A stretch of 48,776 bases of DNA from a bacterium (GTDB lineage: Bacteria; Patescibacteriota; Patescibacteriia; Patescibacteriales; GWC2-42-12). The notes under the pieces are model-generated. The model had not been told where the DNA came from. It was given only the letters and a program-made list of their open reading frames with translations, and made no database searches. Both the position numbers and the translations under genes were made by a program. Below are positions 24,235-46,162 of this stretch, in pieces (the first letter of the stretch is position 1; every line of letters begins with the position of its first letter). The DNA lies in the NCBI GenBank assembly GCA_030655095.1, contig JAURWF010000032.1:1-48776 (forward strand), read 5' to 3'.

Positions 24235-24846
24235 TTATTTCTCCTGCCAAATTGCGCTATCAATCTTCCAAGCACCTTTCTCGCGAATAAACTTAATTAT
24301 TATATTTTGATAAAAAGTGCTAGCATTAATTGTTGTGCCAATCGCTTCTTTTCTCTGATTTTTAATTAAAATTTCTGCTTGACCAGATTCACTATCAAAT
24401 TGCTTAACCTCAGTAGTAATAGCTTTTGTTGTGATGCCATAATAAATAGCTGTTTGTTGATTACTCGCTTGCGCTTGACTAATATAATTATCAGCCCAAG
24501 TTTGCATTTTAGAACTCATAAATAATTTTAAATCACGTATATTTCCATAATCCGACTGATTAGAAAAACTACCAAATCTCTCAGTAAAAGCTGAAGCAAT
24601 CCTTGCTAAATCGTCCTGATTAATTTCAGTCTTTTTTATTGGCGCCACTTTAATAGTCGTGCCTGTTGGAGGAACAGCGATTGTCTGCTCAATCGGTTTT
24701 TTTGGCTGATCTGAAATAACTGGCTCTTTTTCTACTGCTTCGGGTTGCTGAGAAGTAAATTTATATATAAAAATAACATAAACTATGCCAAAAATAAGGA
24801 TTAGTCCTGTTAGAATAATTATTATACCAACTGTTCTTCTACTCAT
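24235..24846 (-). CDS. N-terminally anchored protein with an alpha+beta C-terminal domain (possible VirB8/TcpC-like NTF2 fold)
   Basis: 203 aa. TM VGIIIILTGLILIFGIVYVIFIY. Its stop abuts the comFC start (24235/24234). The fold guess rests only on position and sequence pattern. Confidence 0.55.
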   Translation of the reverse strand: MSRRTVGIIIILTGLILIFGIVYVIFIYKFTSQQPEAVEKEPVISDQPKKPIEQTIAVPPTGTTIKVAPIKKTEINQDDLARIASAFTERFGSFSNQSDYGNIRDLKLFMSSKMQTWADNYISQAQASNQQTAIYYGITTKAITTEVKQFDSESGQAEILIKNQRKEAIGTTINASTFYQNIIIKFIREKGAWKIDSAIWQEK

Positions 24847-24873
24847 AATAATAAATTTTTAAAATTTTTAATA

Positions 24874-26766: not shown

Positions 26767-26770
26767 AGTA

Positions 26771-26841
26771 ATAGGTGTTAGGTTTTAGGTGTTAGGTTTT
26801 AGGTTTTAGGAAATTTTCTAACAGCTAAAACCTAACACCTG
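26771..26841. repeat. Word-repeat palindrome (aggtgttaggtttt units) between the 224-aa gene and virB4-like gene
   Basis: taggtgttaggttttaggtgttaggttttaggttttaggaaattttctaacagctaaaacctaacacctg. Confidence 0.8.
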
Positions 26842-27516
26842 CTATTCTATCTTTAGCTGGCTAACATCAACTAATTTTTGGTTAGCTGATGTTTCGGGAT
26901 TGTAAGTATTATAAAATAATTCAATTAAACTTTGAGTATCTAAAACTGCTGAATTAATACCAAGCGAAGCTAATCCACCGATTGTATTATCAGTTCGTCT
27001 AGTTAATTCAACGCGCCTTTGCAAAAATTTTTCCTCTTTCATTTTTATTAAAGAGACTGGTTTAAATAATTCAAGTAATTTAGAAAAAAAACCTTTTTGT
27101 TTATCTGACATTGGACTATATGGCACTATCGCATAAAACTTCTTGTTCATTATTTTGCCTAAAGAAATTAATTCATTAATATATTGAATATATTCAGTTG
27201 TCTGCATTTTTAATAACTCATTAGTTTGCTCTTTCTCTTTCTGTCTTAAAGTACCAATATAATTATCAATATTCAACTCGCGTGACTGAATAACAATTTG
27301 CAAAGAAAAATCCAAATTATTCAAAAAACTTACATAAGACATAATAATAGCATCTTGCTCATCTTCACTTTTTAAAGCAAAATTAATACTAGACACCATA
27401 ATAACAGCACGCAATGTCCCATCACGCATAATAATTGTATCATCTCTAATCTCAGCAATATCAAGACATTGCTGAGTTGAACTAGTTATTTTATTTGCAT
27501 TTAGTTTATTAGGCAT
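26842..27516 (-). CDS. Hypothetical protein resembling a VirB4 N-terminal domain without the ATPase
   Basis: 224 aa. LDIAEIRDDTIIMRDGTLRAVIMVSSINFALKSEDEQDAIIMSYVSFLNNLDFSLQIVIQS. No P-loop. Confidence 0.6.
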   Translation of the reverse strand: MPNKLNANKITSSTQQCLDIAEIRDDTIIMRDGTLRAVIMVSSINFALKSEDEQDAIIMSYVSFLNNLDFSLQIVIQSRELNIDNYIGTLRQKEKEQTNELLKMQTTEYIQYINELISLGKIMNKKFYAIVPYSPMSDKQKGFFSKLLELFKPVSLIKMKEEKFLQRRVELTRRTDNTIGGLASLGINSAVLDTQSLIELFYNTYNPETSANQKLVDVSQLKIE

Positions 27517-27537
27517 TTTTTAATTTTAATTTTAATT

Positions 27538-27975
27538 TTAATTTTTAACTTTTTCTTCTCCTTTATACGCGCCTTTAGTATCAACAATTAAAGATAATTC
27601 TGCTAAACGAGAAGCATTATAACGCCTAGCCGAAGGAATAACCTGTTCTATCTGCTTCTTATCTTCTACTTCATATTCTGCCTCAATTTTACCAATAGTA
27701 TGATTCCAAACGCGTACTCCTGGCCGCTTTAATGTTTGAGTTATATTTAAAATAAAAAAATGAAGTGGCCTACCATTAACTTTGATAAAAGAAAAAGCGA
27801 CTGCAATTATAAGAACTGAAATACTAGCAACTATAAATAAAGTAAAATCAAATATTTTATAAAAAACCGCAATTAACATAGCCCCGGCCAACAAAATAAC
27901 AAATTGTCTAGTTGTTATTGGTCCGATAATCTTGTCTTCAACGTCAATAAATTGTGGAATAGTAAATTGTTGCAT
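27538..27975 (-). CDS. PrgI-family (VirB3-like) two-TM T4SS protein
   Basis: 145 aa. MQQFTIPQFIDVEDKIIGPITTRQFVILLAG followed by a TM hairpin. Located just upstream of the 224-aa and virB4-like genes. Confidence 0.7.
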   Translation of the reverse strand: MQQFTIPQFIDVEDKIIGPITTRQFVILLAGAMLIAVFYKIFDFTLFIVASISVLIIAVAFSFIKVNGRPLHFFILNITQTLKRPGVRVWNHTIGKIEAEYEVEDKKQIEQVIPSARRYNASRLAELSLIVDTKGAYKGEEKVKN

Positions 27976-27982
27976 ACATTAA

Positions 27983-28068
27983 GTTAGGTTGTAGCTTTTT
28001 AGGTTGTAGCTTTTTAGGAAATTTCCTAAAAAGCTACAACCTAAAAAACTAAGAAGCTAAGAAGCTAG
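27983..28068. repeat. Word-repeat palindrome (ttaggttgtagcttt units)
   Basis: ttaggttgtagctttttaggttgtagctttttaggaaatttcctaaaaagctacaacctaaaaaactaagaagctaagaagctagct. Confidence 0.8.
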
Positions 28069-29532
28069 CTAAAATCGCAAACTTTTATTTAGGTCCATAA
28101 TAGCTTCAAACTCAGAAATCGTTAAATAATCTTCTTTTTTCTTTTTTCTTTCCTCTATTATAACATTAATTGATTTGTTAGCGCTAATGCCAGATTGCCC
28201 CATATTTAGATATAATTTATTTACAAAACTGGAACGCCAAGCTTTAATCCCTTCTAAACGTTTAGTGTATTTTTCTTCTTCTAATAAATTAATTTTCTCT
28301 TTAATTTTTTCAACAGCTTTTCCTGCGTCTGCGCCTAAACGTCGAAAATTCACAAGATCAAGATATTTTAATTCATCAATCGGACTCATTATCCGAGGCA
28401 CAAATTTAATATCCTCTATTTTAATTTTATTAGCTGACTCTGTCTGAGGCCTAATAATTGAATACTGTGATAAATTAATATTTTTTTGAGAAATCTCTTT
28501 TTTTAATTCTTTTACTATTGTGCTTTGATTTAAAACTGGTTGTTGCTGTTGCAATTTTTCAACAGATTTAATAGGCTCAACTGCCTTAGCTACTGGAAGC
28601 GGAGGCAACGGTATTTTTTTAACTAACTCAACTGACTTAACTATTTCAATTTTTGCAGGAACCAACGGAGCAAGTTCATAAGTAGTATCTATTTTTTTAA
28701 ACACCTCTTCTTTTTTTAACTCTTCCTCTGGTATATTCTCATTAACCTTTTTTTGTTTTGCCAAAGCTGTTAAATCATATTCAAAATCACGAACTCCGAT
28801 ATTTTTCAAACTAGCCATAACATCTTTTTTAATTTCCACTGTGTCCATTTTAACCAAAGGTTTTTGCTCTTGTTTTTGATCAGAATTTTTTAAATTACTG
28901 TCAGTAATAGATAAAGCTTGCTCGGCTAAATCATCGTCAAAACTTAAACCGCCAGTTTCAAATGACTTAATCAGCGCTTGTTTAGTTTCAATTCTGCTTC
29001 TAATTCCACGCAAATAAGTTTTTAAAAATTGTTTAAATCTTCCAGCTAAAACATCTGAACTAAAATTAATTTTTGCTTGACTAATTATTTGATTAAGTAA
29101 ATATTCTTCTGGCACAGCTTTGTTTGAATAATTACTAATTTCTTCAGTAAGTTTCGTCACTTCAGCCTCGTCATCAGATGAAAAAAAGAAACTAGCACCT
29201 TTGACTGACGTTTTTTCAACTTCTGATAATGACTTAGAAATTTCTCCATCACCAGCATATTTTACAAAAGGTTGTTCAGCTTTTTCAAATAGTATTTCTG
29301 TTTGCAAAATTTTAACAAGTTTTTGAGCATCAGCTAGCCCCAAAGAAACAGCTAAATTATTTTCTAAATCACTTAAAGTAATTTCTTTAATTATTACTTT
29401 TATAATTAAGACTGCCAATTTTACCCCATATTCTTTTTCTAATTGGGTAATTTTAGATACAACAGCCTGAGAAGAAATTTTTTGCTTCGCTTCTGCGGGC
29501 AATTTATCAAATTTGTCTAGATAATCAAGCAT
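28069..29532 (-). CDS. Hypothetical 487-aa protein (cluster member)
   Basis: Long ORF co-directional with the T4SS-like genes. Lys/Glu-rich, no TM, no recognised motif. Confidence 0.6.
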   Translation of the reverse strand: MLDYLDKFDKLPAEAKQKISSQAVVSKITQLEKEYGVKLAVLIIKVIIKEITLSDLENNLAVSLGLADAQKLVKILQTEILFEKAEQPFVKYAGDGEISKSLSEVEKTSVKGASFFFSSDDEAEVTKLTEEISNYSNKAVPEEYLLNQIISQAKINFSSDVLAGRFKQFLKTYLRGIRSRIETKQALIKSFETGGLSFDDDLAEQALSITDSNLKNSDQKQEQKPLVKMDTVEIKKDVMASLKNIGVRDFEYDLTALAKQKKVNENIPEEELKKEEVFKKIDTTYELAPLVPAKIEIVKSVELVKKIPLPPLPVAKAVEPIKSVEKLQQQQPVLNQSTIVKELKKEISQKNINLSQYSIIRPQTESANKIKIEDIKFVPRIMSPIDELKYLDLVNFRRLGADAGKAVEKIKEKINLLEEEKYTKRLEGIKAWRSSFVNKLYLNMGQSGISANKSINVIIEERKKKKEDYLTISEFEAIMDLNKSLRF

Positions 29533-29544
29533 AAAAAAATTTTA

Positions 29545-29580
29545 TCATTACGAGCTTTGTAATCAAAGCGCGGCAATCTC
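29545..29580. repeat. Half-copy of the family 3 palindromic element
   Basis: tcattacgagctttgtaatcaaagcgcggcaatctc. Only one arm is present. Confidence 0.5.
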
Positions 29581-29689
29581 TTTTTACATATTAGCAAAAA
29601 AATTTTGACAACTCCATAAAATATGTCAAATTTATGGAATGTAAATCCCTAAATTATTGATAATTTAAAGATTAACAATTCTAATAATT

Positions 29690-30067
29690 TTAGCTCTTGG
29701 TCGCCAACTCTGGATTTTCAATTTCAAGTATTCTCTCGTAACCAACTTTAGCCAACCAGCGCTTAAACGGCTCTGCTTTAGGCGATGGAATAGATTGAAT
29801 AAGACGAAACAAGCCTTCGGTATCAGCGCAGTCGGTTTCATAATATTTGCCATCATTAGCTATTAATTTCAGTTGTCTACAGATTGTAGACAACTCAACC
29901 CCATCCTCACTTTTGATTCTCGTTTTCATGGCATTCCAATAAACACGTGGCTTCACGCTATCAGTCAACGCCTCAACTACATCCACAACCGAGAACCACC
30001 ATTCTTTATTAAAAATAGTTTTTCTAATCTTCCTGTTTTTAAATATAGCGATGTGATTGTCTTGCAT
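29690..30067 (-). pseudogene. Bro-N domain protein, apparently C-terminally truncated
   Basis: 125 aa. WWFSVVDVVEALTDS...CRQLKLIANDGKYYETDCADTEGLFRLIQSIPSPKAEPFKRWLAKVGYERILEIENPELA. From memory, homologues continue ~130 aa past the ...PELA point. Confidence 0.6.
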
Positions 30068-30133
30068 GTTAATATTTTTTAATTTTAATTTGTACTTTGT
30101 CGTTTAATCTTTTTCTTCTTATCTCAATTTTTT

Positions 30134-31054
30134 TTAACTTCTTACTTTTTCCATTTCTTCCTCAATAGCTTTTCTTTCTAAACTATCAACTGGATATTGT
30201 TCTGCCATTTTAATTAAATTATCTTTTTCACTTATTTCTGTTTTAGCTTCTATTGCTTTAATTTCTTCTGTTTTTACTATTTTCTCTTCAATCTCATCTA
30301 TCGGAATTATTTCCCAACCTTCGCCAGTGTCTGTTGGCATACTTTCTGGGAAAAATTTTATATTACGATATAATAATAATAATTTTCTTAACAATTCTCT
30401 TTCTTTACTTTCTAATTTTTTAGCATTTTCTGAATTAATTAAATATTCTGCTAAAACCAAATTATCAAAAATCCCGCTCCCATTTTTCTTAATAAAATCT
30501 TTTAACCAATTTCCAATATTTGGAGAATGAGGCTTACCATCCAAAATAAATTCCTTATGAGTTAATTTTTCTTGATTAACATAAAGTGCATTCTCAAGTT
30601 CTTTTTTAAAATTTAAATCATTAGCTAAGATATAAAAAAGCTTTGCATTAACAGCTTCAGCAATAACAAAATGATTATTTAGTTCATTAACCAACCCTTG
30701 TTTAAATATTTCTTCAGCTACACTTTTCTCTTCCAAAAATGAGAGTTGTTTATTTTGATCTAAATTCAAAAAATTTAATCTCCTAATAATTGGATTAAAA
30801 ATAAACTCATCTAAATCTTTTCCAATTTTTTCAGCAACTTCTCTATCTAGCTCAAACTCTCTTTGTAAATATTTAATAATTTCCTCGCCTTTTAATTCAT
30901 CAACGGCAACAAAAATAATAAGCGAACTTAAATCGATTTTATACTTTTCCTCTATTTTTTTCACTTTTACCATAAATACGCCACTACCAAATTCTAGTTG
31001 GACTATTGGAGGAAAATTATTAAATTTTTCTAAAGCCTCTTCAATATAAATCAT
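30134..31054 (-). CDS. Hypothetical 306-aa protein (cluster member)
   Basis: ORF 9 nt downstream of the VirB6-like gene. No recognised motif. Confidence 0.6.
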   Translation of the reverse strand: MIYIEEALEKFNNFPPIVQLEFGSGVFMVKVKKIEEKYKIDLSSLIIFVAVDELKGEEIIKYLQREFELDREVAEKIGKDLDEFIFNPIIRRLNFLNLDQNKQLSFLEEKSVAEEIFKQGLVNELNNHFVIAEAVNAKLFYILANDLNFKKELENALYVNQEKLTHKEFILDGKPHSPNIGNWLKDFIKKNGSGIFDNLVLAEYLINSENAKKLESKERELLRKLLLLYRNIKFFPESMPTDTGEGWEIIPIDEIEEKIVKTEEIKAIEAKTEISEKDNLIKMAEQYPVDSLERKAIEEEMEKVRS

Positions 31055-31063
31055 ATTTTTTAT

Positions 31064-33436
31064 TTATGTTCTACTAACAACATCATACTCATCAACTCTT
31101 TTATTTTCTTTTAATCTGCCCTTTTCCATCATCTCCGTATTAATTCTATTAAGCGCGTCTATTAAATCCTTATCAACAGATTTACCACCTTTTATTTGCG
31201 CCTGTACTCCTTGCTTTAAATTTATAACCCCTAATTTCTCATTATTAGATAAATTTTTAAATTCTAATGTTTTCAAAACCTTTATCATGTTTCTCATTGA
31301 AGCTTTTGATTTTACTGTCCCATCAGCTAATAAATCAAATAATTTATTTTGACCAGAAGTAGGACCATTTTGTGAATAAAAAGCATTTTTAAAATCACCA
31401 AAATCTAAACCCTCATTAGTAAGACTTTCTCTGCGTTCTTTATTCGCTTTATTTTCTACTGTTCCTTTCTCTATGGCTTTTATTGTAAGCTCGTTTGGTC
31501 CAAGCATTTCTTTTGACATATCCACCATTCCTTTTTGAAAAGAATTTCTTCTTTCTTTTTTTGTTTCTAAGTCGTCATTAGCTGTTTTTACTCTATTATT
31601 AGCTGCGTCCAAACCACGACTAGTAGCATGTCTTTTATAAATAGCATCCTTTTTCTCTTCAAAAAATTCTTCTGCATTTTTCTGTTTATTGTCTTGTTCA
31701 ACGTTAATTGTTTTTACATCAGCTTCGTGACGTTTTCTTTCTACAACAGTGCTAGCAATTCCTAGCTGTGGAAGATTCCCAATTTCTAATTCTCTTCTAA
31801 TTTTAATTTGCTCTAACATATTACTCTTTTGTCTCTCAACTCTTCCTATTTCAGGCTCAGCATCTGTATTTACTTGTTCTTTTGTCTTTTCCCTATCCTC
31901 TTCTGCTGATTTCTTTTCTTTTTCAGCATCTATCACGTCTTTTCCTTTTCCCGCTCTTTCTAAAGCATCGGCTGTAAAACCTTTTTTAGTCTTTATTGCT
32001 TTTGCTATACCGGCCACAACCATGCCAATTGCAAGAGGTGAGCCTCCTCCAAGTGCTCCTGCAGTCACTAGTGTTGCTCCTCTCTTTAGTCCTTTTATAT
32101 TTTTATCTTCAGCTAACTCTTTTAATTTTTCCTGTCCTTCACCTTCTCCTGATCCTAGTCCCATTTTTTCTAATGTTTTTCTTCTTCTGGCTACTTGCTC
32201 ATCTCTTACGCCCCCATGCAAATCTACCCCCCATTGATTAGCAAAGCTACCAGCTTTTTTTATAGACTCAGCGCCACTACCAAGAAATTTGCCAGCGAAT
32301 TTACTGCCACCAAAAGCACCAACTGCTGTGCCCGCTCCTCTCAATGCTAAACTTGCGCCTATTTTTCCTCTTTCAACTAATGCCTCTTTTCCTTTTTTTG
32401 CAACCCACCCTTGTCCTTTCTGAATTGCTGCCATTCCTTTTCCTGCGACTTTGCCTGCTGCTCCGCCGACCTGTTGAGCAATCATTAATCCACCGATTAA
32501 CATACCAATAGAAATAATAAATTTAATCAAATTATCAGTACTCCCTGCCTCTGTTATTCCTGTAGCTAAAGTTACATTACTACCTTTATTAATATTTGCC
32601 ATCAATCCTGCTGTAGATGAAGCAGAAACAAATGACAACCAAATAAAAAAAGCTAAAACTGGACCAACAATTACATTGCTGGTAAAATCTTTCCACCACT
32701 GTTGTGAATATGATTGACCAGCTGGAAAAGCTGCTAATAAATAAGCTAATGGAGATAAAACAATATAAATCCATAACATCACCATTCTCATCACTAACAC
32801 GGCCAGCATAGTCGCAATTACTACTGAAGAAATAAGCACATAAATCAACGCCAATATATAAGAGCCAAGAACAGTAAGAGTATTAACATCCTTTGCATCT
32901 GCGCTAATATTATATATATCCTTAAGCCCCAACATATCTGCCAAATTTCCCCTACCTACTTCTTTAAAACCATTAACAAAAGTAAGCATTATTACTTGCG
33001 CGCAATCTATAATTAACCCACAAATTGTCTTAGAAAAATTTATTAAAATAGCCATTAATAAAAGTTTCGGTAATAACTTTTTAACACTGTAATTCTCCTG
33101 CCTTAATATCGTTGCAAAAGCAATAATTAACAAAATTAAAATAAAAAACATATTGCACAGATCCCTAACAATTTTCCAACCGTTAGAAACCGCTGATGAA
33201 TCTATAAATCCATTATAACTACAAACAAGAATTAGAATATTAATTAAAGCAATCAATATAAGACCAATACCATTAATGATAACTGCGATTAAAGAACCTA
33301 AAATTTTAGCTATTCCAACTCCTATATCGTCGGGGCCAGCAAAAACATAATGTCCAATAAAAAAAGTTCCTGATACTATTAATAATAATATCAATCCAAG
33401 AAAAAAATATTTTTTACTAAAAAAATTAATTTTCAT
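31064..33436 (-). CDS. Polytopic VirB6/TrbL-like membrane protein with Gly-rich segment and long charged coiled-coil C-terminus
   Basis: 790 aa. Signal/TM, then ~7-8 TM helices (GWKIVRDLCNMFFILILLIIAFATIL...LINFSKTICGLIIDCAQVIMLTF). The C-terminal ~400 aa is Lys/Glu-rich. Confidence 0.65.
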   Translation of the reverse strand: MKINFFSKKYFFLGLILLLIVSGTFFIGHYVFAGPDDIGVGIAKILGSLIAVIINGIGLILIALINILILVCSYNGFIDSSAVSNGWKIVRDLCNMFFILILLIIAFATILRQENYSVKKLLPKLLLMAILINFSKTICGLIIDCAQVIMLTFVNGFKEVGRGNLADMLGLKDIYNISADAKDVNTLTVLGSYILALIYVLISSVVIATMLAVLVMRMVMLWIYIVLSPLAYLLAAFPAGQSYSQQWWKDFTSNVIVGPVLAFFIWLSFVSASSTAGLMANINKGSNVTLATGITEAGSTDNLIKFIISIGMLIGGLMIAQQVGGAAGKVAGKGMAAIQKGQGWVAKKGKEALVERGKIGASLALRGAGTAVGAFGGSKFAGKFLGSGAESIKKAGSFANQWGVDLHGGVRDEQVARRRKTLEKMGLGSGEGEGQEKLKELAEDKNIKGLKRGATLVTAGALGGGSPLAIGMVVAGIAKAIKTKKGFTADALERAGKGKDVIDAEKEKKSAEEDREKTKEQVNTDAEPEIGRVERQKSNMLEQIKIRRELEIGNLPQLGIASTVVERKRHEADVKTINVEQDNKQKNAEEFFEEKKDAIYKRHATSRGLDAANNRVKTANDDLETKKERRNSFQKGMVDMSKEMLGPNELTIKAIEKGTVENKANKERRESLTNEGLDFGDFKNAFYSQNGPTSGQNKLFDLLADGTVKSKASMRNMIKVLKTLEFKNLSNNEKLGVINLKQGVQAQIKGGKSVDKDLIDALNRINTEMMEKGRLKENKRVDEYDVVSRT

Positions 33437-33650: not shown

Positions 33651-34211
33651 TTATTTACCTACGACTCTGCCCCAAAGCATCTTTAAAACCTCTCCTATAT
33701 AACTCAATGGATTTTGAATTATATTGCAGATTAAAAGAAATAATGCCAATATTCCCAAAATAACTACCCCAACCACCAAATCTAATAACGCTAAACCAAT
33801 TTTATCTCCTAATCTAAATTTAATTTTTTCTACTACTCCAAATAAATCTATTCCTGTTATTTTTAAAAAAGCAAGAATATTTAATCCTAGAAAACCAGGA
33901 ATAGAGCCAACCCATGACGCTGTTAATTCCCATAAAGAATTTAACACTTGAGTAGATGCTCTTTTAGACAATTCGTCTGTTGCTGATTCTCCTGTTTTTA
34001 AACTTTCTTTTTTTAATCCTGCTTCTTTTTTCTTTCTCGCTTCCATTACTTGCTCCCGCAGAGTACTGCTTTCAGTATTATTTTCTTCATTATTTGTATC
34101 ATCATCTTCATTATTTTCTTCTCTTTTTTTTGTTGCTAATTCTCTTGCAACACTATTTTGCTGTTCTGGATTTAAAGTATTATTCATTAATCTACTATCT
34201 TTATTTTCCAT
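33651..34211 (-). CDS. Small membrane protein with acidic disordered N-terminus and 2-3 C-terminal TM helices
   Basis: 186 aa. EENNEDDDTNNEENNTESS, then WVGSIPGFLGLNILAFL and LALLDLVVGVVILGILALFLLICNII. Confidence 0.55.
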   Translation of the reverse strand: MENKDSRLMNNTLNPEQQNSVARELATKKREENNEDDDTNNEENNTESSTLREQVMEARKKKEAGLKKESLKTGESATDELSKRASTQVLNSLWELTASWVGSIPGFLGLNILAFLKITGIDLFGVVEKIKFRLGDKIGLALLDLVVGVVILGILALFLLICNIIQNPLSYIGEVLKMLWGRVVGK

Positions 34212-35523: not shown

Positions 35524-35577
35524 ACCTAAAACTTTTTATTAATTGTTTATATCTTTTAATCATACCTAAAACTTTTT
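35509..35577. repeat. 29-bp direct repeat, copies B (35509-35537, spans the ATPase start codon) and C (35549-35577)
   Basis: atatcttttaatcatacctaaaacttttt twice, 11 bp apart. Confidence 0.9.
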
Positions 35578-35580
35578 TAA

Positions 35581-35629
35581 CTGTCTAAGCTGTCTGAACC
35601 ACTGACAGTTTCTGCGGTTCAGATAACTT
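35581..35629. repeat. Family 1 repeat (hairpin variant); supplies the stop codon of the HEPN gene
   Basis: ctgtctaagctgtctgaaccactgacagtttctgcggttcagataactt. tctgaacc and ggttcaga can pair. Confidence 0.8.
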
Positions 35630-36005: not shown

Positions 36006-36010
36006 ATTTT

Positions 36011-36334: not shown

Positions 36335-36522
36335 TTGTATTTGTATTTGTAATTGTATTTGTATTTGTATTTGTAATTTTCAGTATTTTCAGCGCCCCTC
36401 AGAAACTGTCAGTGGTTCAGACAATTGTAATTGTAATTGTAGCTTTCAGTATTTTCAGAGAGCCTTTCAGAAACTGTCAGTGGTTCAGAGAGCCCCTCAG
36501 AAACTTTCAGTGGTTCAGACAA
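36335..36522 (+). repeat. gtattt/gtaatt microsatellites plus three family 1 copies
   Basis: ttttcagtattttcagcgcccctcagaaactgtcagtggttcagacaa (36377-), ctttcagtattttcagagagcctttcagaaactgtcagtggttcagaga (36444-), gcccctcagaaactttcagtggttcagacaaac (36490-). Confidence 0.9.
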
Positions 36523-36523: not shown

Positions 36524-39500
36524 CTAATAACACCCAATTTCTGTGATAGTGGCAATCGCTGAACATTTCGCACTAGTGTTACAATCTTTACTTCCACCAT
36601 CTCCATCCTTATCCCATCGATGCCGTGCCGTACAAGATTCTTGCTTCTTATTCATAAAATTATGATCAAGCACATTACAACTTACCCAACCGTAACTATT
36701 TCCTCTATCATCACCACCAAAATTGCGAACACCATCTTTACCTAAACATTGATAACCATCCTCTTTCCACTCAGAGCAGTTACTCTCAATCTTACTTCCA
36801 GAGCCCATGCGATGCTCTGCTACTTTTTGTGTCGTGCTCCAATCCCCATACTTATTCCACTCAGTCCTGCCATTGCTATTACAATCCCCCCCAGGCAATC
36901 TACAAAAATAAACTGTTGGATATTCTGTACCGTTTAATGTTGTGCTGTTACCAACTCTGTCTGTAATTATTTCACCAGCATCATTAGTAACCTGCCAACC
37001 AGCATTATCAGCTGGACTAACACCACTAGCATGCGCCCAAACAACACCTCCAGCGTCCGCACATTGTTTTCTTCTATGCTGCACAGCAGTCACTACCGGA
37101 CGCACTAAATTATCTGAACACCCACTCTTATTGAACTCGCATTGTTTATAACTCTCGCTTGTACTACTACTTATATTACTATGATTATTGCAACCTAGGC
37201 TACCATGCAAATAATCAGTATATCCATCATGATTAAATTCAGTTGCCTTCTTCCAACAAGATTGCTGATTCAAAATAGGATTTATCATATCTTTCTCATT
37301 CCAATCACAATGCTCACCATTTGCCGTTTGAACAGCCCCATCTCCACACCAACCATCATCCCAATAACATTTATTGCAGGAATATTGATCAAGCCTATTT
37401 GAGCCAGTACTTATTTTAGTATCTATTCCATTGCACTTATCGCCATTATTAGAGCCACAATCACAGTCTTCTTCACCATTTACTTTTCCGTCGCCACACC
37501 ATTCACTTACACGGCTAGTTTCAGGTGGCGCTGACCACCAAAGTAAACAAACATCTGGATCTCCTGGAGAGCGATCATATTCAAGACAATGACCATACCA
37601 ACCTTTATATCTCATACCAGAATCATCATTATAAGCGCAAGACAATGAATCATTTTTTGGATAAAGCCGACAAGATTGCGGAGTATACCATTTACCATTA
37701 ACGCCATAATTTGTAACGCCATAATTTGCTGATTCTAAAACTGGTCTAATTTTTACATCATCAAAATAATAATCTCCTAAAGCATTGTCGCTAGCTGTTA
37801 AAATAACTTTAATTTTCGTAGTACTTGCTTGAGTTTTAAATGCTTTGCCTCCAATTTTTCCAATCTCAAGCGTCCAAGGTTTTGAAGAATCAACACTTAT
37901 AACAGTTGAGGAGCTAATTAGCTCTTCTGTTGTGCTACTTGCAATAGCAATTAATTTATATTCCTCTATTTTTATTTTTGCTTGTCCTCTGTTCATTCTT
38001 TGAGTATTAACATAAGCAGTAAGTACATACTCTTGATTGTATCTTACTGGAATACTTACGCTACTAGTAAGCGTTGAAACTTTATTATCAGCTGTTAATT
38101 TTACAAAATTCCTACCTTCTGGCGCATAAACATAGCAATCTCCATTATTATCCTTTTTAAAACAAATTTTTTCATCTTGCGATTCTATAGGATCATCAAT
38201 AATTTCACATTGTGCTATCTCGTTTATTTTTTTATACTCATTAATTATTTCTTTAATTATTTCTTTGCATTTTTCCAATACAGTTGTTGATGTGGTTGTT
38301 GATGCCATTAATATCTGACAATTACTATTTTTAAATAAATTTTTCTGCGTTTGCTCATCAGCTTCTTTGCCTTTGTATCCACAATCCCAATTAGTAGGCC
38401 AATCAGGATCTTCTGTGTTGTAAATAACGCTCTCAGTGCCAGAGGCATCTGTAGTAATTGTATTTTTATATAAAACAGATTCAAATTGACCGTTAAGAAC
38501 ACTCGCTGTTAAACCAATAGCGGAAGCTTGTCCTAAAGGATAATAATCATTTGGATAAAAACTTACACTAGAATTAGCCCAACCAACTTTGGCATAACCA
38601 GACATATTACTCATAGCTTCGGCAGTAATAGTGCTGGTGGCTGTCTGGTTTTGTTTTACAGTATTACTAATAAACCGAGAACAACTTCCGCTATCATTAA
38701 ATTTATTACAAACACCCACTTTTTCACACACTCCGCCAGGAACACCCGCTACCTGCGTTATTGTTTCACAAGCTAACCATTTATCACAAACACGATCAGG
38801 AGAAACTTTTAATAATTTATTAGCATTATTATTTACATCTCCCTCCGCAGTCTTACCGCTACCATCATTTTCGGTTATATTAGCATTAAACGTTAAATTA
38901 GATAAACTACTACCATTTTGACTTCTTTCATTAAATAAAACACACCCTTTTTCAAAATCAACCATCCCATTGCAATCACCTGCGTTCATATTCTGCTTTA
39001 AATTATATCCAACAACAGCACGTCTAAGCTCTACATCTGTACCAGTTAGAATACACTGAACACTATCACTAGTGTAAAATTGTTTACTACTAGTCGCAGT
39101 CGCTGAAAGACTATTAACTGCTACTAAATTATTTTTATTTATTAATTCATAAATTACCCCGTTACTATAGTTATCTCTCATAAAATCTCCTGCAGAAGAA
39201 CAATAATAATTAATACAATTATTTCTATTTATTTGACTAGAACAGTTTCTAGTAATACAGGCCTGCAGCGCAACCGTATCAAAAATCGGATTATTTATAT
39301 TGCAGTTTATGCTTCCATTTTTAAAAATATAAACTGTATTTGGCTCAACTTTAACAGTTGCGGTAGCTATATCCATTGAAAATTTACTGATTGGATCAAT
39401 ATATTCTGTACAACCAGCTTCTCTTGCTGGGCAAATTCCTGCCCACATATCTTTAGGTTGAGAAACAGAAGCTCCGCCAGTGCCTAAAGTTTTTAATGTA

Positions 39501-42500
39501 TCTACTGGACAAACAATATCTATTGTTTCTAGACAGCTTACGCCAATAGCACAATCATTATCAGTTAAACAAACCGAATTAGCATTAACACCACCGCAAT
39601 GTTTAACTTTTTTCTTATACCAACCCCAACTGTCAGTAGCTTTTCCAGTTATCTGTCTCCAATCACAAACCATATCACCTGGACTTTTAAAATAGCTATC
39701 ACCATTGCCAGCAGTCCATTTTTGACAACCGATAGCATTTGAAGAACATAAAATCTCATTATACTTATCGGGTTTATTTTTCAAATAAACATTACTATAT
39801 AACAAACTAGTGTCATATTGATAAGGTTTGCCCAAAAGTTGGCAACCTTCATCATCAGCGTTACATTGTTTGCTTTTATCAAAAACAACATATTTTATTT
39901 TATCTTCAAGCACAGTAATTTTGCTAGGATCATTATCGTTAAAAACCTCTTTTTTATAATTATCAGAATTTTTAGTGTCTATCATTAATTCACAACCAAC
40001 AGCAGACTCTGCGCACAAATCACTAAAACTACGCAAATTATGAAGAACATTATCACGATCATTATATGCATCGCAACGCAACATAAATTGTGGCGAAATT
40101 GCACCATTCAAATCTCTATCGCAAATATCAGGAGTTTGCCACGAATCTTTAATTAAATAATAATGATCAACAACTTCAGTTAATCTAATATTATCAATAA
40201 AAAAATTACCATTAGCTTTAATAATTAATTTTTCAGAAATATTTGGCTCATGATCTAAATTTGTCAAATTAATTTTATAAGAATTCCAATTATTATTACT
40301 AGACAATATTGCTGTTGCAAAAGTTGAAGTAGCTAGATTATTAGTTAATTCAGCAGTTAATTGAGTAGCTGATCCTTTTTTAATTTCAAAAGACAAAATA
40401 TAGTCCTGCCCAGCAGAAATAGTCTGTCCGATAACAACGCCTGCACTATAATTTCCGACACTTACTGCAAGCGAATGACCAGGAGTAATCGCTGTTTCTG
40501 AAGATTGCTCAACTGTTGTCCCGCTAATACTCATCCAATCTTGTGTAGGATTTGATAAATCTTCAAAATTATTATTTAAAATAAAACGTATATTATTGCC
40601 CGTACTACCAACATATTCTCTGCAACCATTTTGCGAAGCCGAGCAAATCTTTCCTTGTCCAGGGATTGCCATATAAATACAAGCTGATTGGTCATCATCC
40701 CAAGTTCCTTTTCTCTCGCTACAAGTAGAGCTAGAATCATCGCTTAAAGCAGTTTTGCGATAAGGATGACAATCTTCTGAACAACTAATTGTATTATTAA
40801 CTAAATGATAAGAAATTTGCCCTGCACGATTATAAAATTGCCTGCAATCTGGCTGATAACTAGGATTATTAGATAAATATTTATAACTCGCCTCATTACA
40901 AACAACACTATCATTCTCAGTTACTTCGGGATTTTCCCCAGCCTTTTTTAATTTTACTACTCTTAATTGAAAACCTGATTTATCAGATCCCTCCCAACTA
41001 TAAAATTCGGCACATTGACCTGCATCAGGCTTAATGCATCGTCTTAATGCAGAATAATATTCTTTAGCTTCGGCTCCTTTGCCTAATTCATCTAAATTAG
41101 TAAATTCATCACAACCAATAGCTTCGGCTGAACAAGTTTTTGCTGTTTTTGGTATAAAATAAGAATCACTCAAAGAATCAAAAGAAGATTTGCTTTGAAT
41201 AAAAGTATTATAACCGACACAAACATCTGGACAATAATCTTTTGCTCTTACTTGTGCTGGAATCTTTACATTATCTTTAATAGAAGTATATAATTCACAA
41301 CCAACATCTTCAGCTTTACAATCTGTAACATATTTATCACATTCATTTGGATCATTAATTCCATCACAACTTAGATAACCGGGGGCATATTTTTGATAAA
41401 CAATACCATTTTCTCCATAAGAACTATAAGTTGTAGGATCGCCACGTTCTAATTTAATAGTATCAATAATACAAGAAGCTGAATTAATTTTAATTTTTAT
41501 AGTAGTAGAAGAAGCTGGCAAAATATATGAAGTTTCATATGTTTGCCAATCAGTTCCTGCATTTAATGGAACAACGGTTTGATCAGCTAATTGAAAATTA
41601 TTTCCTACAGCACACTCTTTAGCAGCAAAAGACAAGGAAAAAGACTCGCCAACTAATGCATTAACAGTAATATCTTCTTCTAAATTACCTGATAATAAAT
41701 TACCTGATAATTGCAAAGCCTTAGAGCCATCATATCCATCAGTTGTGCTTGCCATTCCATCCCAAATAGTTCCGGCAAAATCTTCTTCAAAACTAGAGTT
41801 AGTTAATAAATTAACACCTAATCCTGTTTTAAGCCTAATAAATTTATGACAACCCTCATTTGTTTGCTCACAAGTTTGAACATCTTTATCTAAATAAATT
41901 TTATTATTAGTAGAAGTACTTACATTAGTGCTATTGCAAGTAAATTTACTAGTAGAAGCATTATAGCTAGCACAATAAGCAAGACAACCAACATTATCAA
42001 CATTGCATTGTCCGTAATTTAAAGTATTTTCCAAATAAGACACTGTCTCGCCAGCTGATCCGCGAAAAGTTTGGCAAGTATTATATTTTGGCTCGCATGT
42101 TTTTACATCATTCCCAAATCTCCATTCTCTTCTTTCTTCTGTGCAATAACCATATATATCGCATTGTCCATTATTTTTTTCTTTAATACAGGATTGTTCA
42201 TCAGCGCAATATTCATCATTACGGGCGATTGTTAATTGTGAGCTAGCACCATCACCAGAAGTTTCCGCAGAAAGTATTTCATTGCCAGACCCTTCTCGTT
42301 TACAATAATTAAGAGGAGCTTTAAGTACCCAATTTGGATCAACTAATCCTCTGCACCAAGTAGCGTCATATCCTTTAAAATCATCGTCTGACGCAAAACA
42401 AGCAACCATCTTTTCCAAAGTATTATTTCTACCAACATCAGTAAGATCGCCAGAAATATCTTTAGAATGATCTTTAATGTATTGACCAGCAACCTCCCAT

Positions 42501-43945
42501 CCAACAGGCAAAATCCTAAACTTACGAAGAATTATCATTGAACGATAAGGAAAACCTTCAAGATAATTTGGCTCAACTCCTGCGCTAGAAAAACCAAAAA
42601 TTCCATCTTTTTTTAAATACGATCCAAGCGCTTCTCCAACTGTTTTTCTTTCAGTAATAGCAAGACTAAATTTATCATCAATAACACAATTTGTTGGTCC
42701 AGCTTTAGTAGGATCGGGACACATTGTTAATTCAGTCAAAATATTATAATCACCTCGTACAGTAAAATTCGGCTCAATCAACCCAGCCAAACGATCTTTA
42801 GCCCCAGAAACCCCTTCATTATACGGCTGCCCAGCGTAGTCATCTAATCCACCCCAATTACCAGGATACTTTTCCGTAGAAGGGCCTTTATCTTCACTAG
42901 CCTTTCTCATTAACTTATTATACGCAGTTATAGCTAACTGATTTATAAAAACATTTGAAGCATCTACCAAAGCATCTCCAGTAAACTGCCCGAATTTTCC
43001 TGCTTGTATTTGTTCAATTTGTTCCTTTTCTGATTTTGCCTGGCCTGGAACGCCTGTTAATCTACCAGCGATATTTCTAGGATCCAACCAACCACTACCT
43101 TCAACTCTATCTTTCGCTTTTGTGTCTTTTAATAAATCTATATTGTCAGCCATTTTTGTCTGCAAAGAAAGTGCTATTCCTAAATCATTAGATTGAGGAT
43201 TAAACATATCCTGAAATTGAGTTAAAAAATCATTTCCACGCATAGCTTCTTCCCAGTTTTTTGTCATCTTCATAAAAGTACAAGCAGGCTTCTTCATTTC
43301 TGGTCTTACTTGATTTCTTAGTCCTAAACCAATTTTCCATTTAACATTAAAATCTGGTTCACACAAATTAAACTTTTTTCCAAAAATCCCTTCTTTACCC
43401 AATTCTTCAATAAAAGTCCCTGCTGCATTATCAGCAATATTTAAATAATACTCCTCCCAATTTTCTGTTATAAACATTGGCTTTTGCCCCTCTCTTCCTG
43501 AGCCAATATATGTTGCCAAATCAAAAGCCATCTGATTAAGCGCGGTAGAAACAGCTTTAGCTAATGTATTCGATCCTCTTTCTTGTACTGTTTTTATTAA
43601 CTTTTCCCACCGCACTTTCCATTTCTCAGCATTCTGTGCCTTTTTAGCTGCTTTTTCAGCCGCTTTTTTCTCTTCTGGAGAAACTGTTTTAATTACAGGC
43701 ATAATTGCTTGTGCAGTAGCATAAGCTTCATCTGTTCCCAAAGAAACATCGGGAAAACCATCACCATCAGCGTCAGTAAATTCTAATGGCGGAGGAATGT
43801 TTGATCCAGCAGCATTAACGATATTACCTATAACGCTAACACTAAAATTTAAAAATAAAAATATTATAAAAAACAATACACACGAGCTTAAAAAATCTTT
43901 ACTTTTTTTACTTCTCTTTTGTTGAATTTTATTTAGGCTTGACAT
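36524..43945 (-). CDS. Giant (2473-aa) secreted/anchored cysteine-rich multidomain surface protein
   Basis: Uninterrupted 7.4-kb ORF. N-terminal signal anchor CVLFFIIFLFLNFSVSVIGNIVNA. Cys-poor N-domain (aa ~45-560). Nine C-x5-GC-x2-[YFLMW] motifs. Three N-x-x-FE...[FI][IF]D[DNT][IV][KR]L jelly-roll/CBM-like modules. Two CGDG...E(E/H)CD repeats near the C-terminus. Confidence 0.85.
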   Translation of the reverse strand: MSSLNKIQQKRSKKSKDFLSSCVLFFIIFLFLNFSVSVIGNIVNAAGSNIPPPLEFTDADGDGFPDVSLGTDEAYATAQAIMPVIKTVSPEEKKAAEKAAKKAQNAEKWKVRWEKLIKTVQERGSNTLAKAVSTALNQMAFDLATYIGSGREGQKPMFITENWEEYYLNIADNAAGTFIEELGKEGIFGKKFNLCEPDFNVKWKIGLGLRNQVRPEMKKPACTFMKMTKNWEEAMRGNDFLTQFQDMFNPQSNDLGIALSLQTKMADNIDLLKDTKAKDRVEGSGWLDPRNIAGRLTGVPGQAKSEKEQIEQIQAGKFGQFTGDALVDASNVFINQLAITAYNKLMRKASEDKGPSTEKYPGNWGGLDDYAGQPYNEGVSGAKDRLAGLIEPNFTVRGDYNILTELTMCPDPTKAGPTNCVIDDKFSLAITERKTVGEALGSYLKKDGIFGFSSAGVEPNYLEGFPYRSMIILRKFRILPVGWEVAGQYIKDHSKDISGDLTDVGRNNTLEKMVACFASDDDFKGYDATWCRGLVDPNWVLKAPLNYCKREGSGNEILSAETSGDGASSQLTIARNDEYCADEQSCIKEKNNGQCDIYGYCTEERREWRFGNDVKTCEPKYNTCQTFRGSAGETVSYLENTLNYGQCNVDNVGCLAYCASYNASTSKFTCNSTNVSTSTNNKIYLDKDVQTCEQTNEGCHKFIRLKTGLGVNLLTNSSFEEDFAGTIWDGMASTTDGYDGSKALQLSGNLLSGNLEEDITVNALVGESFSLSFAAKECAVGNNFQLADQTVVPLNAGTDWQTYETSYILPASSTTIKIKINSASCIIDTIKLERGDPTTYSSYGENGIVYQKYAPGYLSCDGINDPNECDKYVTDCKAEDVGCELYTSIKDNVKIPAQVRAKDYCPDVCVGYNTFIQSKSSFDSLSDSYFIPKTAKTCSAEAIGCDEFTNLDELGKGAEAKEYYSALRRCIKPDAGQCAEFYSWEGSDKSGFQLRVVKLKKAGENPEVTENDSVVCNEASYKYLSNNPSYQPDCRQFYNRAGQISYHLVNNTISCSEDCHPYRKTALSDDSSSTCSERKGTWDDDQSACIYMAIPGQGKICSASQNGCREYVGSTGNNIRFILNNNFEDLSNPTQDWMSISGTTVEQSSETAITPGHSLAVSVGNYSAGVVIGQTISAGQDYILSFEIKKGSATQLTAELTNNLATSTFATAILSSNNNWNSYKINLTNLDHEPNISEKLIIKANGNFFIDNIRLTEVVDHYYLIKDSWQTPDICDRDLNGAISPQFMLRCDAYNDRDNVLHNLRSFSDLCAESAVGCELMIDTKNSDNYKKEVFNDNDPSKITVLEDKIKYVVFDKSKQCNADDEGCQLLGKPYQYDTSLLYSNVYLKNKPDKYNEILCSSNAIGCQKWTAGNGDSYFKSPGDMVCDWRQITGKATDSWGWYKKKVKHCGGVNANSVCLTDNDCAIGVSCLETIDIVCPVDTLKTLGTGGASVSQPKDMWAGICPAREAGCTEYIDPISKFSMDIATATVKVEPNTVYIFKNGSINCNINNPIFDTVALQACITRNCSSQINRNNCINYYCSSAGDFMRDNYSNGVIYELINKNNLVAVNSLSATATSSKQFYTSDSVQCILTGTDVELRRAVVGYNLKQNMNAGDCNGMVDFEKGCVLFNERSQNGSSLSNLTFNANITENDGSGKTAEGDVNNNANKLLKVSPDRVCDKWLACETITQVAGVPGGVCEKVGVCNKFNDSGSCSRFISNTVKQNQTATSTITAEAMSNMSGYAKVGWANSSVSFYPNDYYPLGQASAIGLTASVLNGQFESVLYKNTITTDASGTESVIYNTEDPDWPTNWDCGYKGKEADEQTQKNLFKNSNCQILMASTTTSTTVLEKCKEIIKEIINEYKKINEIAQCEIIDDPIESQDEKICFKKDNNGDCYVYAPEGRNFVKLTADNKVSTLTSSVSIPVRYNQEYVLTAYVNTQRMNRGQAKIKIEEYKLIAIASSTTEELISSSTVISVDSSKPWTLEIGKIGGKAFKTQASTTKIKVILTASDNALGDYYFDDVKIRPVLESANYGVTNYGVNGKWYTPQSCRLYPKNDSLSCAYNDDSGMRYKGWYGHCLEYDRSPGDPDVCLLWWSAPPETSRVSEWCGDGKVNGEEDCDCGSNNGDKCNGIDTKISTGSNRLDQYSCNKCYWDDGWCGDGAVQTANGEHCDWNEKDMINPILNQQSCWKKATEFNHDGYTDYLHGSLGCNNHSNISSSTSESYKQCEFNKSGCSDNLVRPVVTAVQHRRKQCADAGGVVWAHASGVSPADNAGWQVTNDAGEIITDRVGNSTTLNGTEYPTVYFCRLPGGDCNSNGRTEWNKYGDWSTTQKVAEHRMGSGSKIESNCSEWKEDGYQCLGKDGVRNFGGDDRGNSYGWVSCNVLDHNFMNKKQESCTARHRWDKDGDGGSKDCNTSAKCSAIATITEIGCY

Positions 43946-45523: not shown

Positions 45524-46162
45524 CTATTGTGAAGAACTATTTAATGTTTCTTCATAACTATCTAATAAATCCTTATCACTAATTTTATCCAAAACTTCTT
45601 TTTGCATACCTTGCTGAAGTAATAGTTGTCGCAAAGTCGCAACATCTGGCTGTCCGCTTGCGGGAGCAACAACATTACCAATATTTGAATTAGGCGCAAC
45701 AACTGGTTGAGTGCCAATAACTGCATTAACATTATTAATATCTGAATTAATTGTAGTAGTTGCTTGTTGATTAATTTGATCAACGTTGCAATCACGACCA
45801 GCTGGACAATTAGGATCTTTACCACTATCAACTTCCTGCTTGTCAGAAAATCCATCGCTATCACTATCTTCTAAATATGGAGAAGTCTTGTATAAATTAA
45901 GCTCATCCCAATCAGATAAACCATCTTTATCACTATCTTTAGTTTTTAAAATTTCATCACTATTTTCTGTCGTAATATTATTTAGCTGATTTTGACCATC
46001 TCCTTTATAAGCAAATGGACTACTAATACTATTTTTCAATTGAATAGTCCAAGCAACTAAAACAAAAACACCAAAAACAACCAAAATTCCCGCAGCAATT
46101 TTGTGTTTTCTGCCTAGCGGTTGCTGTTCTTGTTGTCCAATTTGAAAATTATTATTTTCCAT
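45524..46162 (-). CDS. N-terminally anchored protein with TSP3-like Asp-rich repeats
   Basis: 212 aa. TM IAAGILVVFGVFVLVAWTI. DSDKDGLSDWDE, DSDSDGFSDKQE..DPNCPAGRDC. Confidence 0.7.
   Translation of the reverse strand: MENNNFQIGQQEQQPLGRKHKIAAGILVVFGVFVLVAWTIQLKNSISSPFAYKGDGQNQLNNITTENSDEILKTKDSDKDGLSDWDELNLYKTSPYLEDSDSDGFSDKQEVDSGKDPNCPAGRDCNVDQINQQATTTINSDINNVNAVIGTQPVVAPNSNIGNVVAPASGQPDVATLRQLLLQQGMQKEVLDKISDKDLLDSYEETLNSSSQ

Follow-up and report, generated by a model that had tools for sequence, protein, structure and literature searches.

A giant, cysteine-rich protein family encoded beside a type IV secretion-like gene cluster in Patescibacteria: a candidate host-contact adhesin

The giant gene and its family

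Patescibacteria, which live attached to host cells, account for a large part of the bacterial diversity that is uncultivated. The subject here is a giant gene on contig JAURWF010000032.1 (assembly GCA_030655095.1), whose 48.8 kb (48,776 nucleotides, 31% GC) were analysed as a whole and are referred to as the window. The gene, at 36524..43945 on the minus strand, is one ATG-started open reading frame (ORF) encoding 2473 amino acids (aa) and a protein of ~270 kDa, with 101 cysteines (Cys; 4.1%, as compared with 0-1% in the adjoining proteins of a type IV secretion system (T4SS)-like cluster). The giant proteins constitute a strongly conserved, lineage-restricted, N-terminally signal-bearing and Cys-rich family, and in relatives the gene usually heads a same-strand T4SS-like cluster.

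Searching 5.8 billion proteins brought up more than 268 relatives. Among the best 120 of these, nearly all are 2000-3150 aa long and the sources are Patescibacteria, Parcubacteria or Falkowbacteria assemblies; almost all are called "hypothetical protein" or are unnamed, and none has a functional name. The closest among the matches listed is 68% identical over 95% of the length. When one genome per GTDB species was scanned, 387 species genomes encoded a relative, and the lineage of the family is that of the Falkowbacteria/Magasanikbacteria-type Patescibacteria (apparently GTDB class ABY1); as regards distant relatives outside this lineage, the best 120-150 matches listed are filled by the family itself. 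In an alignment of 116 full-length homologues, on which the conservation counts below are based, 323 positions are at least 93% identical, and conservation is 80% or higher at 67 of the 101 Cys.

An assembly chimera was the possibility that the first-pass annotation, made from the sequence alone, had raised against its own description of the protein. Collinear homologues of 2200-3100 aa were found in over 100 independent assemblies, in some cases on contigs longer than 1 Mb, and the fetched loci, when translated, hold an intact ORF of 2400-3030 aa in 58 of 83 cases; therefore the giant gene is not an assembly chimera. The identity of the closest homologue across nearly the entire protein and the even GC content and skew along the gene argue the same way, so that an artefact, whether a chimera or a read-through across several genes, has a negligible probability. 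The gene is real, and the family is conserved. A phage or plasmid origin was also rejected: tblastn with the giant protein found no match in 50,697 phage genomes or 72,556 plasmid records, there is no PHROG match, and the window is ordinary chromosome, with genes for FBA, TIM, EngA, Pth, ClpP, PPDK, S6, SSB, EF-P, KsgA and tRNAs. CagY-style variation by recombination between DNA repeats is ruled out by a scan of the gene for repeats, which found none that is long or significant. Promoter and terminator scans performed no better than on shuffled sequence.

Architecture of the protein

The protein is read here as a succession of conserved and variable segments, among them three modules resembling carbohydrate-binding modules (CBMs). 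All lie on the minus strand and are listed from the N-terminus; pLDDT values are from AlphaFold 2 (AF2).

43811..43945, minus: N-terminus (aa 1-45), a basic start and one hydrophobic segment at aa 22-40, from a hydropathy scan
43559..43810, minus: variable linker (aa 46-129), mean pairwise identity 0.21, weak FG-GAP match
42266..43558, minus: N-domain (aa 130-560), conserved and Cys-poor, mean pairwise identity 0.52, many invariant residues
41810..42265, minus: Cys scaffold 1 (aa 561-712), 12 Cys, hairpins 1 (aa 647) and 2 (692), identity 0.57
41444..41809, minus: jelly roll 1 (JR1, aa 713-834), CBM4/9/22-like, PDB profile match to 4d0q at E 2e-3, identity 0.36
40583..41443, minus: Cys scaffold 2 (aa 835-1121), 18 Cys, hairpins 3 (aa 876), 4 (938) and 5 (1101), identity 0.56
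40175..40582, minus: jelly roll 2 (JR2, aa 1122-1257), CBM4/9/22-like, profile matches to CBM22 4xup (E 4e-6) and CBM4 1gui (E 4.5e-5)
39311..40174, minus: Cys scaffold 3 (aa 1258-1545), 16 Cys, hairpins 6 to 9 (aa 1311, 1361, 1400, 1505), identity 0.52
39146..39310, minus: variable insert (aa 1546-1600), lineage-specific, 72% gaps in homologues, aligned fraction 0.23
38501..39145, minus: conserved beta-rich domain (aa 1601-1815), AF2 pLDDT ~70-85 over aa 1600-1720
37742..38500, minus: jelly roll 3 (JR3, aa 1816-2068), CBM-like, profile matches to 4d0q (E 2.2e-5) and CBM4-2 1k42 (E 4e-4)
37532..37741, minus: 4-Cys module closing the shared core (...CLLWW; aa 2069-2138), identity 0.63
36527..37531, minus: C-terminal region (aa 2139-2473), fast-evolving, minority type, two WCGDG-type units

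About 79% of the protein has no match in Pfam, NCBIfam, PHROGs or PDB sequences. The unmatched parts include the N-domain, the three Cys scaffolds, the domain at aa 1601-1815 and the module at aa 2069-2138, a status that held when 59 family members were scanned singly against Pfam at E<=5. A literature search found no paper on the giant family or on the C-x5-GC motif described below. Two AF2 models were built from 42-sequence alignments (mean pLDDT 54 and 64), and three Foldseek searches with them gave jelly-roll matches only, with no fold assigned to the N-domain or the scaffold.

The hydrophobic signal segment claimed at the N-terminus is present (aa 22-40) and is the sole strongly hydrophobic stretch in a hydropathy scan of the whole protein. 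It would be either a Sec signal peptide or a signal anchor, with a possible cleavage site between VNA and AG within aa 1-45. An N-terminal hydrophobic segment occurs in 109 of 116 homologues, and a C-terminal one, or any further transmembrane segment, in none of them; LPxTG occurs in a single homologue, and the giant protein itself has neither LPxTG nor a hydrophobic C-terminus. The linker that follows carries a Ca-binding-like motif, DADGDGFPD, seen in 1 of 116 homologues, namely this protein. The next segment had been described as a Cys-poor domain of ~500 aa with no recognised motif, and this stands. There are 5 Cys in aa 1-500, with C195, C222, C409 and C420 invariant in homologues, and the N-domains of the 59 members gave no consistent family match in Pfam at E<=5, while a PDB profile search at E<=10 yielded just two chance-level matches. 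Its invariant acidic and aromatic residues include E458, E484, D399, D536, W483 and W539. The AF2 model of the N-domain is helical but of low confidence, and the domain is predicted to be all-alpha.

The scaffolds are marked by the motif C-x5-G-C-x2-[YFLMW], of which nine copies had been reported. A regular expression finds exactly nine, at the reported positions (aa 647, 692, 876, 938, 1101, 1311, 1361, 1400 and 1505), whereas in 2000 shuffles of the protein the mean is 0.05 copies and no shuffle has more than 2, and the 18 Cys of the nine motifs are 100% conserved in the 116 homologues. A tenth, looser C-x5-GC at aa 2269 is unconserved. The motif has no match in Pfam, NCBIfam or PHROGs, in keeping with its description as unnamed. 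In the low-confidence AF2 models most of the nine copies have a beta-strand that begins at the second Cys or no more than a few residues away from it, which suggests that the motif may form a disulfide-closed loop followed by an aromatic-bearing strand. Pairs of these hairpins are paralogous to one another (aa 645-702, 874-948, 1361-1410 and 1306-1371; hhalign probability 60-90%).

Beyond the hairpins, scaffold 2 includes a confidently modelled beta-rich subdomain at aa ~945-1095 and scaffold 3 a small Cys knot at aa ~1450-1480. Weak matches to Dickkopf_N/DUF7107 fall in the scaffold 3 region in 2 of 59 members, and the 59 middle regions, scanned singly against Pfam, gave no consistent weak match. 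No Pfam or PDB match was found for the beta-rich domain at aa 1601-1815. In the module that closes the shared core C2092, C2103, C2120 and C2133 are invariant, and the module is paralogous to the segment after JR2.

Three modules with N-x-x-FE openers and a characteristic closing motif had also been proposed, with a layout like that of CBM4/9 jelly rolls. All three are present, the openers at aa 716, 1124 and 1818 and the closing motifs IIDTIKL (826), FIDNIRL (1249) and YFDDVKI (~2060), and the nucleotide coordinates that had been assigned to them are arithmetically correct. PDB profiles match them at E 4e-6 to 2e-3, and AF2 together with Foldseek recovers the beta-jelly-roll fold of CBM_4_9/CBM22 modules, with TM scores of 0.65-0.67 to CBM22, root-mean-square deviations (rmsd) of 3.3-3.8 A, and further matches to CBM4, CBM16 and CBM6. 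Block pLDDT values are mostly in the 70s to 90s, with a few lower blocks in JR1 and JR3. JR1 lies mostly at 76-90, with one 20-residue dip to 45-58, and its Foldseek matches are to CBMs; JR2 lies mostly at 79-94 and matches CBM22 4xup_E (TM 0.67, rmsd 3.3 A); JR3 has a confident core, and the large insert claimed for it proved to be a lineage-specific helical insert at aa ~1860-1910 that is absent from most homologues. The three are paralogous (hhalign probability 97% for JR1 and JR2, 93-96% for JR3 with either; 93-97% overall), and the repeated unit takes in the preceding C-x5-GC hairpin, aa 690-832 aligning with aa 1099-1255. On the evidence of profiles and predicted fold, then, the modules are paralogous CBM4/9/22-type jelly rolls, making up ~21% of the protein, and many homologues carry a precomputed PF02018 match.

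The likeness to CBM4, CBM_4_9, CBM22 and CBM16 (e.g. PDB 4xup, 1gui, 1k42, 2zex) consists of the shared fold and a weak, consistent profile similarity. Unlike known CBMs, the modules are not joined to any recognisable glycoside hydrolase; they sit in a Cys-stapled scaffold, each preceded by a C-x5-GC hairpin, JR3 has its helical insert, and the giant scores under the Pfam gathering threshold. CBM-like jelly rolls are receptor-binding modules in phage tail fibres and in the toxins CDTb, Ib, Vip3 and Cry, and the receptor-binding domains of these four toxins (in the case of Cry, of the protoxin) are among the Foldseek matches. Tandem jelly rolls with small Cys-rich modules between them are also seen in Reelin repeats and in the C-terminal halves of Cry protoxins, a structural analogy only. 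Reelin and Cry protoxin are the top whole-chain Foldseek matches for aa 1100-2145, but with a whole-chain TM of ~0.1 and a likeness confined to the jelly rolls, and there is no sign of homology to either.

Rates of evolution and the C-terminal region

DIFFERENTIAL

Mean pairwise identity is 0.52-0.63 in the N-domain, the scaffolds and the post-JR3 module, and 0.36-0.41 in the three jelly rolls. The shared core ends at aa ~2138, beyond which 57 of 59 locus proteins have a different, longer C-terminus; the type found here is shared by ~16 of 120 homologues by BLAST, and identity drops faster there than in the core. An exhaustive search of 1.84 billion representatives, made with this minority-type C-terminus (aa 2139-2473), matched only 13 proteins, and the region has no Pfam match and no toxin domain. 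The jelly rolls and the C-terminus thus evolve faster than the scaffold, and fast jelly rolls with a swapped C-terminus are what one would expect of ligand-binding parts that track different hosts.

A polymorphic toxin of the CdiA/Rhs type was considered and rejected: the C-terminus is variable, but there is no toxin domain and no co-varying immunity gene. The small gene downstream (p186) is found also in loci with the other C-terminal type and does not co-vary with that type, and therefore carries no immunity-gene signature.

The two CGDG units that had been read in this region are at aa 2150 and 2200, and their Cys are common to only ~12% of homologues. The resemblance that had been drawn to the Myxococcus cysteine-rich repeat was not borne out as membership. 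The CGDG...E-x-CD signature is common to both, yet no match to DUF4215 or TIGR02232 was found in the giant with Pfam, whether over its full length at E<=1 or over aa 2139-2473 at E<=0.1, or with NCBIfam (E<=0.1), and membership was rejected on these grounds. The units are instead copies of a distinct ~37-aa WCGDG repeat. Five of the 13 proteins matched by aa 2139-2473 are unrelated surface proteins with beta-propeller or He_PIG domains, and in these the segment around the second CGDG recurs as 4-11 tandem ~37-aa copies with the consensus WCGDG-x-VQ-x3-GE-x-CE ... QY-x-C-x2-C-x-W-x-GG. The WCGDG-array proteins (P0121, P0124, P0127, P0128, P0129) are large and exported, several share an N-terminal region (...IALRVIPN...SPQSLLVDGY...), and Pfam is blind to their arrays; DUF4215 weakly matches (E 0.0023) the terminal canonical copy in one of them, P0124.

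Genomic context

The neighbours of the giant gene that recur in its relatives are the following, all on the minus strand.

45524..46162, minus: TSP3 partner, a 212-aa protein with a single transmembrane segment, Pfam TSP3_bac (Ca-binding repeat) at E 6e-6
33651..34211, minus: 186-aa protein with two C-terminal transmembrane helices, whose gene comes right after the giant in some canonical clusters
31064..33436, minus: 790-aa polytopic protein, VirB6/TrbL-like, 8 hydrophobic segments, orthologues with weak TrbL_3 matches
24235..31054, minus: rest of the T4SS-like cluster, encoding a 306-aa protein, a Bro-N insert, a 487-aa protein, PrgI/VirB3, a TrsD-like protein of 224 aa, the VirB4 ATPase and a 203-aa protein with a single transmembrane segment

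The T4SS neighbourhood that had been claimed for the giant proved stronger than first seen. The order in relatives is KsgA, the TSP3-repeat membrane protein, the giant, a small protein, a TrbL_3-like protein of ~800 aa, proteins of ~300 and ~500 aa, PrgI, a TraC/TrsD-like protein, VirB4 and a protein of ~225 aa. In two relatives (loci L001 and L002) this cluster is uninterrupted and operon-like, on one strand with gaps of ~10-140 bp, and a small gene holds the position of the 186-aa protein; the same order is found in 15 or more further loci, and a third relative (L003) keeps only its first part. Of the 48 loci whose flank is 4 kb or more, 42 have a VirB6-like gene downstream on the same strand; the TSP3 gene directly precedes the giant in 64 of 68 loci, and ksgA is present in 55 of 63.

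The marker matches in the window are P-loop_TraG (3.7e-28), PrgI (2.2e-7) and CagE_TrbE_VirB in Pfam, and TrsD (1.8e-6, below the curated cut-off) in NCBIfam. Together with the polytopic VirB6-like protein, these provide the set that marks an MPF_FATA-like Patescibacteria T4SS: VirB4, PrgI/VirB3, TrsD-like and VirB6-like. In the downstream same-strand series, ComF comes after the 203-aa protein. Pfam found no relaxase or coupling protein in the 39 scanned of the 45 window ORFs of at least 100 aa, in agreement with two published accounts (PMC12102498, PMC10633639).

Several features of the neighbourhood may be recorded alongside. Within the otherwise conserved cluster of the window are inserts at 34318-36319 and 29690-30067 (minus strand), comprising an MNT/HEPN-like toxin-antitoxin pair, the gene of an ATPase (AAA_14/DUF4143) and a Bro-N gene. 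L006 and L015 have AAA_14 and Bro-N in comparable places, and insertion hot spots flanking the giant gene are therefore suggested. On the other side, an ORF6N gene and an orphan opposite-strand ORF part the giant from its usual upstream neighbour. The ORF6N (KilA-N-like DNA-binding) gene, at 44726-45259 (minus), adjoins the giant, and such a gene lies directly after the giant's stop or nearby in ~9 other loci (L006, L009, L012, L024, L028, L035, L036, L046, L076); rather than a chance insertion, it may be a recurring member or a regulator of the cluster. The orphan ORF (44018-44554, plus) encodes 178 aa, of which 5.1% are Cys, with a hydrophobic segment at the N-terminus and a tail rich in Thr, and has no Pfam match at E<=0.01, a weak sub-threshold NCBIfam match, and no tblastn match in 83 related loci. 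Just 3' of the giant's stop, the intergenic stretch 36385-36522 holds three ~34-nt direct repeats (AGAGCCCCTCAGAAACTGTCAGTGGTTCAGA...) between TTGTAT/TTGTAA hexamer arrays; the repeats have a higher GC content than the sequence around them, and there is no Rfam match and no inverted repeat.

Further TSP3 (Ca-binding) repeat genes lie in the window at 18-1151 (minus) and 19484-20632 (plus), besides the one at 45524-46162 (minus), and in relatives (L001-L003) a second TSP3 gene stands upstream of ksgA on the opposite strand. The giant/T4SS cluster has DsbA/thioredoxin-like genes at its flanks in L002 (28379-28799) and L003 (2718-3425), which fits a need for extracytoplasmic disulfides; none was seen among the window ORFs of at least 100 aa. 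A bAvd/23S_rRNA_IVP gene, an accessory of diversity-generating retroelements, is found inside the cluster of L003 (21816-22208) and raises the question of targets of such elements among the family or its neighbours. Of the loci in which genes unrelated to T4SS follow the giant, four were scanned with Pfam, and in three of these (L042, 17819-19033; L063, 15289-16566; L066, 18035-19240) the giant is followed by a BNR/YCF48-like beta-propeller protein with a Por_Secre_tail domain, after which come tRNA synthetases in L063 and L066. The Por_Secre_tail domain, a C-terminal domain of the type IX secretion system type, is odd for a presumed monoderm and is seen in a diverged sub-lineage. Elsewhere in the window, the ORFs at 1257-1922 and 1941-3134 (minus) match the C- and N-terminal halves of a DUF2339 membrane protein and could be a split or frameshifted gene.

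Interpretation

The reading that we hold with moderate confidence is that the giant is an exported, probably N-terminally anchored, glycan-binding adhesin or stalk, and an accessory of the T4SS in host contact. The role in host attachment is suggested by domain content and gene order. The protein would be exported by Sec and would probably be held at the cell by its N-terminal hydrophobic segment, with the conserved helical N-domain near the envelope. A long scaffold would follow, stiffened by ~30 or more conserved disulfides, including the nine C-x5-GC loop-plus-strand staples, and would bear the three CBM4/9/22-type jelly rolls before ending in the fast-evolving C-terminal tip. The jelly rolls and the tip would bind host-surface glycans and so hold the epibiont's T4SS against the host. 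On this account the giant would be a functional, non-homologous counterpart of Gram-positive conjugation adhesins such as PrgB. What we infer is export, the formation of disulfides, the binding of glycans, contact with the host, and a coupling to the T4SS that may be physical or functional.

The comparison with known systems frames this proposal. A survey of the T4SS in Patescibacteria from 2025 reports this same repertoire of VirB4, PrgI, TrsD and VirB6, with relaxases lacking and ABY1-class loci linked to comF; it detected no PrgB-like adhesins and does not mention the giant gene (PMC12102498). In Southlakia epibionticum, a cultivated Saccharibacterium, the T4SS cluster is essential for epibiotic growth; it has pilins and no listed gene of more than ~1100 aa (PMC10633639). 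PrgB and the aggregation-substance adhesins of MPF_FATA systems are likewise large surface proteins encoded with a VirB4/PrgI/VirB6-type monoderm T4SS and plausibly serve target-cell contact, and the giant shares with them its place within a monoderm-type T4SS gene cluster, with VirB6-like, PrgI, TrsD-like and VirB4 genes on the same strand. The differences are several. The giant has an N-terminal hydrophobic segment instead of an LPxTG sortase signal, carries CBM modules rather than polymer-adhesin and Ig domains, is twice the size and has 4% Cys, and its T4SS is chromosomal and without a relaxase; homology to PrgB adhesin or Ig domains was sought in Pfam, NCBIfam and PDB, and by tblastn in the 72,556 plasmids, with no match.

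Giant surface proteins have been described as a general trait of predators and epibionts within the candidate phyla radiation (CPR) from work on Vampirococcus, with different domains (PMC8080830). The giants of Vampirococcus lugosii (1392-4163 aa, PMC8080830) are, like the one described here, very large membrane or surface proteins of an ultra-small episymbiont, with a proposed role in host recognition. Their domains are WD40, PKD, integrin, fibronectin or DUF11, and no link to a T4SS is reported for them, whereas the present family has an N-domain and a C-x5-GC scaffold of its own and a conserved position in the T4SS cluster.

A number of observations weigh against the proposed T4SS-linked adhesin. 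In genomes this small a conserved gene order says little about function, the housekeeping gene ksgA being equally syntenic; 6 of 48 informative loci have non-T4SS genes downstream of the giant, and in the window ~2.3 kb of toxin-antitoxin and ATPase genes part it from the T4SS genes. The giant's own Pfam CBM_4_9 (PF02018) match, to JR2 only, is below threshold (18.2 bits against a cut-off of 25.9, E 0.0034), and the CBM assignment therefore rests on profiles and fold. The models of the N-domain and the scaffold are of low confidence (mean pLDDT 54 and 64), the elongated stalk being only proposed.

The same synteny lends itself to another account, in which the protein is an adhesin of a general kind (surface, envelope or S-layer-like), functionally independent of the T4SS, and the adjacency is gene order inherited in a streamlined genome. 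The retention of ksgA in most loci and the loci without T4SS genes downstream are as expected on that account, as are the tightest linkage of the giant being to the TSP3 gene and not to the T4SS genes, a Saccharibacterial T4SS cluster without such a protein, and giant surface proteins in other CPR bacteria without a T4SS link (PMC8080830). Set against these are the single strand, the short gaps and the operon-like run into the VirB6-like gene in L001 and L002, with the same order in 42 of 48 loci, and the consideration that Gram-positive-type T4SS normally need a surface adhesin, none having been identified in Patescibacteria; we regard an unconnected adhesin as possible but on the whole unlikely. 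A bolder proposal, in which the giant is an integral extracellular part of a Patescibacteria-specific T4SS, seems rather unlikely. It would make the protein a disulfide-stapled stalk whose N-domain docks on the VirB6-like, TSP3 and small transmembrane proteins and which acts as a bridge, possibly a conduit, in place of a pilus or adhesin.

That the giant is an exported enzyme is quite improbable. On that view the N-domain would be a catalytic domain of a new sort that cleaves glycan or peptidoglycan, VirB1-like or opening the host wall, and the CBMs would direct it to polysaccharide. Modules of the CBM4/9/22 type are typically appended to glycoside hydrolases, the PDB matches are to xylanases, a laminarinase and a lyase, and the strong conservation of the N-domain includes acidic and aromatic residues that are invariant; moreover, no VirB1-type hydrolase is recognisable in the cluster by Pfam and NCBIfam scans, and VirB1 homologues are rarely linked to virB4 outside Paceibacteria (PMC12102498). 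Yet none of the 59 N-domains matched a glycoside hydrolase, lyase or lysozyme family in Pfam, neither of the two chance-level PDB matches is to such a family, and the predicted fold is of low confidence, with no catalytic motif assignable. A released toxin or translocator, in which CBM-like receptor-binding domains join a helical N-domain that remodels the host membrane or inserts into it, and which the T4SS possibly handles as Ptl does the Sec-exported pertussis toxin, is more remote still and would be a real surprise. The Foldseek matches to toxin receptor-binding domains, the all-alpha prediction for the N-domain, and a cluster without coupling protein or relaxase, as the literature reports for Patescibacteria, are compatible with it, but these matches cover the generic jelly roll only, at a whole-chain TM of ~0.1, neither a known toxin domain nor, apart from the signal segment, a hydrophobic helical hairpin is present, and the small downstream gene shows no co-variation with the C-terminal type.

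Implications

As a T4SS-linked host-contact adhesin, the giant would be of a kind already known, the giant episymbiont surface adhesin in the role of a T4SS accessory; ~79% of its sequence belongs to no described family. The analysis defines three unannotated sequence families, namely the N-domain, the C-x5-GC-stapled scaffold and the WCGDG repeat, and if the protein were an integral stalk of the T4SS, the scaffold and the N-domain would represent new structural folds. In the one system tested the T4SS is essential. In a major lineage of Patescibacteria, the giant is thus a concrete candidate for the missing host-contact component of their T4SS.

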